Positions 45,413-47,728 of a stretch of 47,728 nt of DNA are shown here, piece after piece. The notes beneath the pieces are model-generated. The model was given only the letters and a program-made list of their open reading frames with translations, did not search any database and was not told the DNA's origin. Both the position numbers and the translations under genes were made by a program. Every line of letters begins with the position of its first letter. Positions within the stretch are counted from its first letter, which is position 1. Source of the DNA: Escherichia coli (lineage in GTDB: Bacteria > Pseudomonadota > Gammaproteobacteria > Enterobacterales > Enterobacteriaceae); assembly GCF_003334765.1 (NCBI RefSeq), contig NZ_QOWT01000031.1. One strand, written 5' to 3'.

Positions 45413-45673
45413 TTAGGGAAAAATAAGGAAAAAATAATCATCTTCTACATTTGTGTATATTGATATATCCACCGCTACGTGCGGAAAAAAATCTGGGAGC
45501 CATGTAAAAACTCCATCATTTTCTGGTATTGCCATATAGTTTATGTAATGTTTACTTACAAGAGATTCATCTTTGTATAAATAAAGATAAGTAATTACGC
45601 ATAAAACAACAATGATTATAATAGCAAAAATAAATATTATCATCTTTGATATATTACTTGAGATAGCCAGCAT
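45413..45673 (-). CDS. Small membrane protein (86 aa), candidate immunity protein for the orphan Rhs toxin
   Basis: Strongly hydrophobic N-terminal helix; start overlaps the end of the orphan Rhs C-terminal ORF by 20 nt; very AT-rich. Confidence 0.4.
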
Positions 45674-46364
45674 CTTGTAAAGCCTTTATCGTTTTTTTAT
45701 GCTCTGGATTAATATAATCACTACATCTATCTGAGCAATCTGTTGTTGATGGACATGTCAACCCATGGTCATTTACAGCCAAGTCTTTTTTATTATCTTC
45801 AATCATTTCAGAATGGGATAGCTTTACTTTTCTGCCGTACATACCGAACAGATTTAACCCGTAATCTCTAATCTCTTTTTCATAACCCAGCCCTTTCGCC
45901 GATCGGCTAACACCAGCGTCATTTAATTTAGACACTCGACAAAATGCCATACAATGGAAAAATTGATCAGTCCCACCTAAATTTAATCTCTTCATATCTT
46001 CATAAGTATCAGATAATATATCCCATGCTCTTTGATGGTTTAGTTGATCTTTTCTTCTTATTAGCGCTACATCTGCGGGACTTAACCCTAATGGATCAAT
46101 ACCATTCACCGGATTCAGCGGATACGCATACAGACTCCATCCCCCCTCCAGCCCTATCGGGTCCTGAGTGATATACCGCCCCTGCAACGGATCGTAGTAC
46201 CGGTTCCGGTTGTAGTACAGCCCCGACTCCTTATCATACTGCTGCCCCGGCAGCCGGTACGGCTGGTGCAGGTGATGCGGGTTCTCTTCATTCAGCTGGT
46301 TGCCCCACTCATCATACTCCCCGCTCCACGCAATGTTTCCATCCGCATCCATCAGCGCCAGCAT
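45654..46364 (-). CDS. ylbH: Orphan Rhs C-terminal fragment (conserved core end plus variable toxin domain; ylbH-like)
   Basis: Starts within the conserved Rhs core end ([16 protein letters not shown]...[20 protein letters not shown]...IDPLGL) followed by an unrelated C-terminal domain; no N-terminal Rhs body. Confidence 0.75.
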
Positions 46365-46732
46365 TATTTACTATGTAGGAAATTCAAAACACATCCATTT
46401 TTCTTATTAATTTCTATAATAAATACACCACCCGCAACTTCATAAGGTAACTTTGCTCCCTCAACAACCCAACTATCTGGTAGTTCCGTAATTAAATATG
46501 GTTTTTCTTCTTCTGCAATCCGTTCGCCATAGCGATACCTAACATATATTTCAGCTAATTGTATCGCCATTGTTTCAGTTTTTACCGTATTTTTAACAGA
46601 GTATTTATCTAAATGTAATTTTTCCACATACCTCATAAAAATAATGTTTTCATCAGAACCGTAAACAGCTGTCTCATTACAGGCAAATAGTATAAAAAAT
46701 GAAAGCATCGAAAATATTGAACTATATTTCAT
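46364..46732 (-). CDS. ybbC: Rhs immunity-type protein (ybbC-like, 122 aa)
   Basis: Directly downstream of the main Rhs toxin end; signal-peptide-like N-terminus; AT-rich; stop overlaps the next start (TAATG). Confidence 0.65.
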
Positions 46733-46771
46733 TGAATCTCCTTATAGGCCCCACTAATAAAAGCACTAAAA

Positions 46772-47728
46772 TTAATCATGATACGGTATGCATACTGAAC
46801 TCAATCCCGGGACACTATTTCTGATAAAAATATATTCTCCTTTATTATTAAGCGCCTCAAATCGTCCATCAGGTGTTGCGAGATAAAATGCTTCAAGATT
46901 ATTATCTTTACTTCTTACAAGATTTTTATCGCTACTTGAAAAAAATTCATCAACATAATCGCCATGACTATCTGCACCGTGAGTATGATAAGCAGCAACT
47001 CTATCTGTACCTGTGGGACATTTTCTTTTCAGAGGATATGACTCCTTTCTTAAATTATCAGTTTCTGCCTTAGATGCAAAATATTTTCCATTAGTATCTT
47101 TACAGACAATACCAGAGTATTCCATATCATTACATAGAGATCTATTCTGCGTTTCTTTCAAAGCATCTAACGCAGCATCTGCAGTACTATCAAATTTACT
47201 TGGTCCTATTATACGTGAAAGAACACCACAAACTCCCCCCGTACATGCTCCAGATCTGGCATCATCCCAAGTCTGCAATAATCCCATAGGGTCAATTTGT
47301 TGTAGTGGATTTAAAGGATACTGATATAAATTCCATCCCCCTTTCAACCCCATCGGGTCCTGAGTAATATACCGCCCCTGCAACGGATCGTAGTACCGGT
47401 GACGGTTATAGTACAGCCCTGATTCCTCATCATGCTGCTGCCCTGGCAGACGGTACGGCTGATACACATGATGCGGGTTCTCCTCATTAAGCTGGTTGCC
47501 CCATTCATCATATTCCGCGCTCCACGCCGTATTGCCGTCTTCGCTGATAAGCGCCAGCGGCAGTCCCCGGTGGTCGCAGTGATAAAGATGAGCTTTTCGC
47601 GCCGGTGTGTATTCCGGCTCCACCTGTCTGGCCAGTTGCTCCACCGTCAGCCCGCACTGCGCAAGCCACGCCCGGCTTTCACTGCTCACGCGGTCTGCCC
47701 GGATTTCTTCCTCCAGCCTGTCCAGCAG
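46772..47728 (-). CDS. rhsD: Rhs protein, C-terminal part only (core end with DPxGL motif plus C-terminal toxin domain); gene continues past the window end
   Basis: Conserved Rhs core end ([56 protein letters not shown]) followed by a variable domain; frame open to the window edge. Confidence 0.85.

Follow-up and report, generated by a model that had tools for sequence, protein, structure and literature searches.

Main and orphan toxin modules of the Escherichia coli rhsD locus and the probable origin of their direct repeat by tip displacement

The rhsD locus and its main module

The window analysed is a 47,728-nucleotide stretch of Escherichia coli DNA. Nucleotide comparison identified the minus-strand region described here as the 3'-terminal part of the E. 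coli rhsD locus, located between ybbP and mnmH; many E. coli genomes match it at 100%, and K-12 matches with 99.9% nucleotide identity over 3.5 kb. The minus-strand gene order is the 3' end of rhsD, cut by the window edge, followed by ybbC, the orphan ylbH/rhsH and ybbD. Near-identical records annotate rhsD, ybbC, an RHS-core-containing pseudogene (ylbH = rhsH) and ylbG. A preliminary description, made from the DNA sequence alone, had proposed an Rhs locus with main and orphan toxin/immunity modules, and this was confirmed by the two minus-strand copies of the core end and by the annotated rhsD/ybbC/ylbH/ybbD region. The locus as such is already known: its K-12 annotation exists, and main and orphan Rhs modules, tip displacement and orphan switching have all been published.

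Both core ends have the arrangement DPxGL-x17-DPxGL, followed by a low-GC tip and then by a small ORF, and the core-end motif PxxxxDPxGL is present in the main and the orphan copy. Alignment showed no relationship between the two tips (local score 28). GC content is 0.59 in the cores and 0.28–0.38 in the tips and immunity genes. On the 3' side of the orphan module lies a 32-codon 5' remnant of another rhs gene (44721–44816, minus strand; NCBIfam RHS_core positions 1–32, E = 5.3e-12), which is annotated as a partial hypothetical protein and shows weak PAAR-like similarity (E = 0.013). The mnmH-side border of the rhs region is formed by ylbG (44297–44662, plus strand), an N-terminal fragment of an IS481-family transposase annotated as a pseudogene and matching positions 2–112 of the 284 in the NCBIfam profile transpos_IS481 (E = 2.8e-25).

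The window covers the last 319 codons of the main gene rhsD, with the 5' part lying beyond its edge. The last 150 codons of the core (47279–47728, minus strand) end in DPMGL-x17-DPMGL and match NCBIfam RHS_core positions 1112–1261 (E = 1.6e-94), Rhs_assc_core (E = 2e-24) and Pfam RHS (2.9e-16). In the near-identical K-12 locus the full RhsD comprises 1426 aa and scores 2787 bits against an RHS_core cutoff of 2000.

The main toxin tip, RhsD-CT (46772–47278, minus strand; 168 aa plus stop), is a DUF4329 = Tox-JAB-2 domain, matching Pfam PF14220 over 113 of the 116 model positions (E = 3e-37). The residues by which the Tox-JAB-2 family is defined are E, H[ST]H, S and D (PMC3482391); in the 319-codon translation they are found as E203 (MEYSG), H248-T-H250 and S264-S-S-D267, and all are conserved in RhsB-CT, which is 51% identical to RhsD-CT. 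The GC content of this tip is 0.365, compared to 0.59 for the core. A sequence search of RhsD-CT against the PDB gave no match, and its homologue search returned nothing beyond near-identical or error-ridden fragments. Published threading of an EHEC DUF4329 tip pointed to the proteasome lid.

The next gene, ybbC (46364–46732, minus strand), encodes 122 aa with an N-terminal hydrophobic leader that contains a lipobox-like motif, recognised by pattern match. The product is annotated as YbbC/YhhH family and matches Pfam Imm-NTF2-2 (PF15631, E = 6.8e-26), so the immunity-type gene anticipated after the main tip does belong to a recognised immunity family. Pairing of Tox-JAB-2 with Imm-NTF2-2 was catalogued by Zhang et al. 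2012 (PMC3482391). The main module comprises an Rhs shell gene with a Tox-JAB-2 tip and, directly after it, the gene for the putative Imm-NTF2-2 immunity protein of that tip.

The orphan module and its partner gene ybbD

The orphan begins with a core-end fragment of 94 codons (46083–46364, minus strand; RHS_core positions 1169–1261, E = 2.2e-50), whose ATG overlaps the ybbC stop codon (TAATG, 46362–46366). This fragment shares 80% nucleotide and 80% amino acid identity with the main core end, is joined to a different tip and is annotated without an N-terminus. The core/tip boundary corresponds to the second DPxGL, at 47279 in the main copy and at 46083 in the orphan copy.

The orphan tip, ylbH/rhsH-CT (45654–46082, minus strand; 142 aa plus stop), is a serum-amyloid-A-like (SAA-like) domain of the prok-SAA/Lipocone type. 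The single-sequence match is weak (Pfam SAA, 1.3e-3 / 3.6e-4; phmmer against the PDB, 0.3); what carries the assignment is the profile of the family together with the fold prediction. Pfam SAA was matched by 29 of 43 members of the orphan-tip family (best value 6e-24), and the family profile recovered serum amyloid A from the PDB with E = 1.9e-11. The AF2 model was all-helical with a pLDDT of 96.7, and its top seven Foldseek hits in the PDB were all SAA (SAA1/SAA3; probability 1.00, target-normalised TM 0.68–0.73). All 11 family-invariant residues are present (D39, H43, C44, C48, E70, D73, D100, N104, G107, C116 and C120). Helix 4 reads V-N-D-H-G-L compared to sNxxGR, so that the N and G are kept and the R is not. 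The homologues examined, where upstream sequence was available, are likewise placed after a DPxGL-type Rhs core end. The preliminary description had found neither C-terminal domain assignable; Pfam, profile and structure searches place the main one in DUF4329/Tox-JAB-2 and the orphan one in prok-SAA. The preprint by Burroughs et al. 2025 (10.1101/2025.01.14.632903) describes prok-SAA tips as domains of polymorphic toxins whose immunity proteins are transmembrane proteins or lipoproteins.

The orphan's partner gene, ybbD, is split in the window. Its N-terminal fragment (45413–45673, minus strand) encodes 86 aa with a transmembrane helix and the start of the YbbD_head domain (NCBIfam NF011298 positions 1–85 of 163) and breaks off at a frameshift within a T-run (~45427–45434). 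The C-terminal fragment (45183–45380, minus strand) is a 65-aa ORF in another frame, matching positions 99–163 of the same 163-position profile (E = 3.5e-42) and collinear with the intact gene of locus L002. Relative to that intact 163-aa allele, the frameshift is a one-base deletion; an intact 163-aa allele is also found in L004. The orphan module in the window is left without an intact cognate partner gene. The small membrane protein previously assigned to the orphan does have a hydrophobic N-terminal helix (a strong hydrophobic segment at residues ~11–31), but it represents the first 86 aa of the frameshifted 163-aa ybbD, the remainder of which extends beyond the span originally described.

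Precomputed annotations assign YbbD to PF26610 (YbbD_head), and a Pfam library scan gave no match for either the 86-aa fragment or the intact protein. The AF2 prediction for intact YbbD, made with 7 sequences, had a mean pLDDT of 56 and was confident in the transmembrane helix only. In another genome, a YbbD homologue with 34% identity (E = 3e-18) is encoded directly 3' of an SAA-like orphan tip with 56% identity. From this, we infer that YbbD is probably the immunity protein of the SAA-like tip. In E. coli O157:H7 LSU61 the SAA-like tip belongs to an intact Rhs of 1398 aa, yet ybbD is split there; this would mean that the 86-aa fragment is enough, that a role of YbbD as immunity protein is mistaken, or that the toxin goes unused.

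The direct repeat and fused rhsD alleles

The two core ends form a direct repeat, with the upstream arm at 47279–47560 within the rhsD core end and the orphan core end as the downstream arm. Pairwise alignment of 46083–46362 with 47279–47558 gave 80% identity without gaps over 280–282 nt (94 codons). Flanking sequence in the same register was only 13–33% identical, so the repeat lies far above chance. The repeat had been described as near-identical over about 210 bp; it is real, but identity over that span is 84% (178/211 to 180/215), and no exact run between the arms is longer than 34 nt (46171–46204, partner 47367–47400, minus strand). The shorter span ends at the first DPxGL, and weaker homology continues for 66 nt to the second. 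At the protein level, 75 of 94 residues are identical, and the codon differences comprise 24 synonymous and 19 non-synonymous changes.

An in-silico fusion of the rhsD core with the ylbH tip was searched in 5,426 complete E. coli genomes. It matched many of them in one piece at 98%, these being genomes without the JAB/ybbC module, and in about 900 of the 5,426 the SAA-like tip is fused directly to rhsD at the same ybbP–mnmH site. Such fused alleles were seen in distant strains, including O157/O55:H7, B7A and CFSAN064035. E. coli genomes with one or the other of the two arrangements number roughly 2,700. No genome among the 5,426 matched the in-silico recombinant at more than 98.0%, which excludes crossovers between the 34-nt block and the 14-nt identity described below. 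When full-length Rhs proteins ending in the SAA-like tip were looked for at the protein level, only short proteins were returned. Since LSU61 carries the intact gene, we attribute this to clustering on the conserved core and do not read it as absence.

In all four fused alleles examined, main-type sequence switches to orphan-type sequence at one 14-nt identity, GAGAACCCGCATCA (46273–46286, partner 47469–47482, minus strand), which we regard as the likely site of a historical crossover. On its 3' side the diagnostic sites of the four alleles are orphan-type at 43 of 43 positions; on its 5' side they are main-type at 25 of 26 positions in L002 and L004 and at 22 of 26 in L003 and L005. At least two lineages of fused alleles, differing at 3–5 diagnostic sites, share this single junction. 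As a separate observation, rhsB was considered as the donor of the main core end and rejected: 3' of the junction the main copy matches rhsB at 142 of 190 positions, compared to 151 of 190 for the orphan copy, and is no closer.

Origin of the two modules and comparison with known systems

C-terminal displacement has been proposed as a route of rhs diversification by Jackson et al. 2009 (PMC2935791), and it is probably what occurred here. An ancestral rhsD would have carried the SAA-like tip, and a cassette consisting of a core end, the JAB tip and ybbC would have recombined into it with a crossover in the 14-nt identity. The orphan module would then be the former rhsD tip, made up of 94 core-end codons, the SAA-like domain and the membrane-anchored partner YbbD, and the direct repeat would be the duplicated core end left by cassette entry, a displacement scar and not an active switch. 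The residual repeat could still allow a deletion that re-fuses the old tip. Such deletions should be rare because the arms are only 80–84% identical with a longest exact run of 34 nt, and the presumed immunity gene of the re-fused toxin would be broken.

We infer the direction of the event, insertion as opposed to deletion, from the four sampled fused loci and parsimony. A single crossover at the 14-nt site yields the observed chimeric pattern either way, and one deletion followed by spread could, in principle, also have given rise to the fused alleles. However, an ancestral two-module state of the K-12 type, from which fused rhsD–SAA alleles arose by deletion between the arms, appears unlikely. 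The fused alleles occur in at least two lineages and in distant strains with the same junction throughout. Deletions arising independently should preferentially use the 34-nt block. The low-GC JAB/ybbC cassette also resembles an incoming piece, and the published model, together with E. coli examples, favours displacement.

A working repeat, through which subpopulations would regularly lose the JAB tip along with ybbC and express the SAA-like tip from the rhsD shell, is somewhat less probable again. Toxin switching through the repeat, as originally suggested, is possible in principle: both arrangements occur in nature at the same E. coli site, and the arms share an exact block of 34 nt, a length at or above the minimum for RecA-dependent exchange. 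Salmonella LT2 also offers a precedent, since recombination between its rhs-main and rhs-orphan occurs under selection; for the Typhimurium rhs-main/rhs-CT-orphan pair, with 522 bp of homology at 95%, recombination was shown experimentally (Koskiniemi et al. 2014, PMC3967940). In contrast, homology here amounts to ~215–280 nt at 80–84%, and the crossover in the fused alleles lies in the 14-nt identity and not in the 34-nt block. The frameshift in ybbD and the binding of H-NS and StpA to the region in K-12, where they cover ybbC-rhsH-ybbD, also argue against regular switching. One junction in four of four fused alleles, together with the lack of any closer match than 98.0% to the in-silico recombinant in 5,426 genomes, points to one historical displacement rather than continuing switching.

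An internal toxin–antitoxin module is the least probable of the readings considered and would be surprising. Here a promoter and start within the core end would produce the orphan, and the main tip, inside the cell as a delivery-independent system resembling type II toxin–antitoxin modules. In Salmonella, Starsta et al. 2020 (PMC7043789) showed internal promoters in the conserved region of main and orphan rhs genes, and they report that P2 also precedes Rhs toxins in E. coli; the TAATG overlap would in addition permit coupled translation. However, a consensus scan found no minus-strand sigma-70-like site in either repeat arm, and the totals of a promoter and terminator scan of 44150–47728 were at the chance level given by shuffled sequence. 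Strains are viable despite the frameshifted ybbD, the region is occupied by H-NS and StpA, and SAA-like Lipocone toxins are predicted to act outside the cytoplasm.

As to what the tips do, it is possible, although doubtful, that neither is a nuclease and that the cell envelope is the target of both. The leader of YbbC is of the lipoprotein type and that of its paralogue YhhH is hydrophobic, from which it follows that the Tox-JAB-2 tip would be a periplasmic metallo-(iso)peptidase and not the annotated 'RNase'. The SAA-like tip would be a Lipocone enzyme that cleaves lipid head groups and is countered by YbbD. If both act on the envelope, K-12 would hold two genetically tractable examples bearing on the biochemistry of serum amyloid A. 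The SAA-like tip with YbbD could offer a convenient bacterial system in which to study the enzymatic activity proposed for that protein. As a discovery the locus is of little importance. The refinements are that the repeat is 80–84% identical, that the orphan's partner is a pseudogene here, that four fused alleles locate the crossover within a 14-nt identity and that both tips belong to named families (Tox-JAB-2 and prok-SAA/Lipocone) with predicted activities.

Compared to the E. coli K-12 rhsD element (rhsD-ybbC-ylbH/rhsH-ybbD-ylbG), the gene order and the pseudogene states are alike and there is essentially no difference, except that the window ends inside rhsD and that the 100% matches are to certain other E. 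coli strains. The Salmonella Typhimurium locus (PMC3967940; PMC7043789) has the same layout of a full-length rhs, an immunity gene and an orphan in which a core-end fragment carries another tip and is followed by a gene of its own, with a direct repeat of core sequence between main gene and orphan. It differs from the present locus in the extent and identity of its repeat, in both tip families and in the state of the orphan's downstream gene, which is frameshifted here.

Agreement with the Tox-JAB-2/Imm-NTF2-2 pair (PMC3482391) extends to the Pfam matches, the E/H[ST]H/S..D motif and gene adjacency; Tox-JAB-2 is considered a nuclease or RNase in the literature by prediction, whereas the export-type leader of YbbC would suit a periplasmic target instead. 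With the prok-SAA Lipocone tips (10.1101/2025.01.14.632903), the orphan tip shares the SAA-like fold, the N-x-x-G of helix 4, the position as an Rhs tip and a membrane-anchored partner. It differs from them in reading V-N-D-H-G-L instead of sNxxGR and in being detached from its shell, and a YbbD_head partner is absent from the immunity folds listed in the preprint passages considered. The C-terminus of EDL933 RhsD z0651 (PMC7216683) is grouped with these tips as the closest known counterpart of the orphan tip.

The closest correspondence in terms of origin is with the model of Jackson et al. 2009 (PMC2935791). Shared with it are a high-GC core followed by low-GC tips, a dissociated tip lying downstream with a short core fragment, and a probable ancestral tip, attached in other strains, that was displaced by a new one. 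In that paper the dissociated and attached core regions are stated to be identical within a locus, whereas here the arms differ at ~16–20% of positions and a 14-nt identity contains the junction.

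Locus content and the direct repeat

Many E. coli chromosomes match the final 3.5 kb of the window (44200-47728) at 100% identity, and K-12 MG1655 matches it at 99.9%. From the mnmH side, the K-12 annotation reads ylbG, a partial hypothetical protein, two small hypothetical proteins, an RHS-core pseudogene ("RHS repeat-associated core domain-containing protein", N-terminus missing), ybbC and rhsD. The preliminary description was right to recognize an Rhs locus with main and orphan modules, which is this annotated rhsD region. Every rhs-related gene here lies on the minus strand. 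The adjoining segment (37827-44181) carries the allantoin/glyoxylate cluster and mnmH (hyi, gcl, allR, allA, allS, mnmH) in K-12 order, followed by ylbG (44297-44662, plus strand), an IS481-family transposase fragment. Downstream of the orphan module, ending about 60 nt from ylbG, lie 32 codons from the 5′ end of another rhs gene (44721-44816, minus strand), which match RHS_core positions 1-32 (E = 5.3e-12) and weakly resemble PAAR (E = 0.013). They appear to be the relic of a second rhs gene that was destroyed at this site.

The window edge cuts rhsD, leaving its last 319 codons, which match RHS_core positions 1112-1261 (E = 1.6e-94); the full K-12 protein of 1426 aa scores 2787 bits on the same model (cutoff 2000). 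The 236-aa orphan ORF (45654-46364) matches positions 1169-1261 (E = 2.2e-50). Both core-end copies close with DPxGL-x17-DPxGL, and the proteins are unrelated beyond the second DPxGL. The RHS_core matches and paired DPxGL ends bear out the proposed layout of core end, tip, downstream gene and then orphan copy.

A direct repeat does exist: 46083-46362 and 47279-47558 align without gaps at 80% identity, compared with 13-33% in the same register beyond the arms. It is not near-identical, as had been described. The copies first delimited (46150-46364 and 47345-47555) share 84% identity, and the longest exact run between the arms is 34 nt (46171-46204). Those copies end at the first DPxGL, and weaker homology extends a further 66 nt to the true core/tip boundary. 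The 94 repeated codons show 24 synonymous and 19 non-synonymous differences.

Toxin tips and their partner genes

Neither tip had been thought to carry an assignable motif; both proved assignable. The 168-aa main tip after the core end (46772-47278) matches Pfam DUF4329 (E = 3e-37). This family was named Tox-JAB-2 and defined by E, H[ST]H, S and D, with Imm-NTF2-2 as its immunity partner (Zhang et al. 2012, PMC3482391). The motif is present as E203, H248-T-H250 and S264-x-x-D267, all retained in the RhsB tip (51% identical). The next gene, ybbC, matches Imm-NTF2-2 (E = 6.8e-26); the pair therefore corresponds to the published pairing and was already catalogued. Tox-JAB-2 activity has been predicted to be "nuclease rather than peptidase" (PMC3482391), and several later in silico papers, including an EHEC study (PMC7216683), label DUF4329 tips "RNase" by prediction. 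YbbC residues 1-18 (46679-46732, minus strand) form a hydrophobic leader fitting a lipoprotein signal pattern with Cys18, and a hydrophobic leader is likewise present in YhhH, the YbbC paralogue encoded after RhsB, whose tip is also DUF4329. The RNase label sits uneasily with an export-type leader on the immunity protein; an exported YbbC would better fit a periplasmic target of the main tip.

The orphan tip (45654-46082), taken as a single sequence, weakly matched Pfam SAA (serum amyloid A; 1.3e-3) and reached 0.3 against PDB in phmmer, and a family alignment was therefore built. Exhaustive HMMER searching gave 92 representatives at E ≤ 1e-3. Wherever upstream sequence could be inspected in the examined homologues, the domain was preceded by an Rhs core end of the DPxGL type. 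Eleven residues are invariant in the 43-sequence alignment (D39, H43, C44, C48, E70, D73, D100, N104, G107, C116 and C120), all kept in the window's tip. The family profile matched solved SAA structures at 1.9e-11 to 2.6e-9, and 29 of the 43 members had their own Pfam SAA match (best 6e-24). The AlphaFold2 model is all-helical (pLDDT 96.7); its top seven PDB matches are exclusively SAA1 or SAA3 (probability 1.00, target-normalised TM 0.68-0.73), and matches beyond these are noise. The assignment agrees with the EHEC study, in which the C-terminus of RhsD (z0651) resembles SAA (PMC7216683), and with the Lipocone preprint (10.1101/2025.01.14.632903). The preprint defines prok-SAA domains as polymorphic-toxin tips, predicted to act outside the cytoplasm by cleaving lipid head groups and to be countered by TM or lipoprotein immunity proteins.

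The small membrane protein attributed to the orphan has a strong N-terminal TM helix and is not a complete gene. On a 163-residue NCBIfam profile its 86 aa correspond to positions 1-85, and positions 99-163 are matched further downstream by a 65-aa ORF in another frame (45183-45380, minus strand). Alignment to the intact 163-aa allele of CFSAN064035 places a one-base deletion in a T-run (about 45427-45434) of this gene, ybbD. Precomputed Pfam annotation assigns intact YbbD proteins to PF26610 YbbD_head; the model beyond the TM helix is of low confidence (pLDDT 56). In another genome, a YbbD homologue (34% identical, E = 3e-18) directly follows a 56%-identical SAA-like orphan tip, so the tip-partner linkage is conserved. 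That alignment spans the frameshift site, which indicates that the functional form is the 163-aa protein and the window copy a pseudogene. Unlike the single orphan here, CP029992.1 (locus positions 1832-5667) carries a multi-tip array: an Ntox16-like fragment comes first, then a 380-aa orphan whose tip is SAA-like, a YbbD_head protein, and a TseH-like protein with Imm58.

In K-12, Tn-seq and ChIP-exo found ybbC-rhsH-ybbD bound by H-NS and StpA and free of transposon insertions, which was ascribed to H-NS/StpA coverage (PMC9948719). The stretch corresponds to 45183-46732 of the window, and such occupancy would fit silencing of AT-rich DNA there. Internal expression of either tip, from a promoter within the conserved core end, has precedent in main and orphan rhs genes of Salmonella, and the promoter was reported in E. 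coli too (Starsta et al. 2020, PMC7043789); the orphan ATG overlaps the ybbC stop codon (TAATG). However, a promoter scan of the rhs region gave no signal above chance, ybbD is broken and the predicted site of action of the SAA-like family is extracytoplasmic, making internal expression improbable.

Fused alleles and the origin of the repeat

An in silico deletion product, with the ylbH tip joined to the rhsD core by crossover in the 34-nt block, was queried against 5,426 complete E. coli genomes. Many matched it in one piece at 98.0%; in these the fused gene occupies the same ybbP ... mnmH position in the chromosome, and the JAB/ybbC module is missing. At least 80% of the query was covered in 2,730 genomes; about 1,760-1,860 have the K-12-type arrangement, leaving roughly 900 fused by subtraction. 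Junctions were scored at the 69 positions differing between the window's repeat arms, using the fused loci of four distant strains (CFSAN064035, B7A, O55:H7 RM12579 and O157:H7 LSU61). All 43 sites 3′ of a 14-nt identity, GAGAACCCGCATCA, are orphan-type in all four; 5′ of it, main-type bases occupy 25/26 sites in CFSAN064035 and B7A and 22/26 in RM12579 and LSU61. A single crossover at this identity, in either direction, would explain the pattern. No genome of the 5,426 matched the in silico recombinant above 98.0%; the collection therefore contains no deletion product whose crossover falls between the 14-nt site and the 34-nt block, a statement limited to that interval since the query ranks crossovers nearer the tip lower.

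The fused rhsD of CFSAN064035 (locus positions ~5880-5905) and B7A (~5380-5405) is frameshifted by an extra G in a G-run (G7 vs G6) just past the first DPxGL, leaving the SAA-like tip as a separate 151-aa ORF; annotation of the RM12579 allele gives a frameshift and an internal stop. Inactivating indels thus occur in homopolymer runs of both fused rhsD (G-run) and ybbD (T-run). The 1398-aa Rhs of LSU61 (locus positions 4709-9146) is intact and ends in the SAA-like tip, yet ybbD is split as in the window, leaving an apparently complete toxin gene with a broken presumed immunity gene.

The most likely reading of the repeat is a scar left by tip displacement, an event that might on rare occasions run backwards. 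A cassette of core end, JAB tip and ybbC would have inserted once, historically, into an ancestral rhsD-SAA gene, with crossover at GAGAACCCGCATCA, following the displacement model of rhs tips (Jackson et al. 2009, PMC2935791). A single insertion is favored because two allele lineages and distant strains share one junction, because it lies outside the much longer 34-nt block, and because the incoming module is of low GC (0.31-0.37 vs 0.59 in the core). The shared junction and the lack, among the 5,426 genomes, of a recombinant crossing over between the 14-nt site and the 34-nt block fit this scar better than the proposed toxin switching, in which the repeat serves to swap the expressed tip. 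The toxin expressed after a switch in the window would have a frameshifted partner gene, and other fused alleles are themselves pseudogenes, although LSU61 suggests that a split ybbD is not necessarily fatal. RecA-dependent exchange and mismatch-repair anti-recombination make exchange rare in short, diverged homology, so switching between these arms is expected to be rare.

The initial observation is partly confirmed and its interpretation partly supported. Nothing essential about the locus is new (K-12 annotation; Zhang et al. 2012; Jackson et al. 2009; Koskiniemi et al. 2014; Lipocone preprint), and its remaining biology is the predicted biochemistry of the two tips. In the Salmonella precedent, homology between main gene and orphan spans 522 bp at 95% identity, with recombinants forming minor subpopulations detected only under selection (Koskiniemi et al. 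2014, PMC3967940); in contrast, the homology in the window is less than half that length and 80-84% identical.
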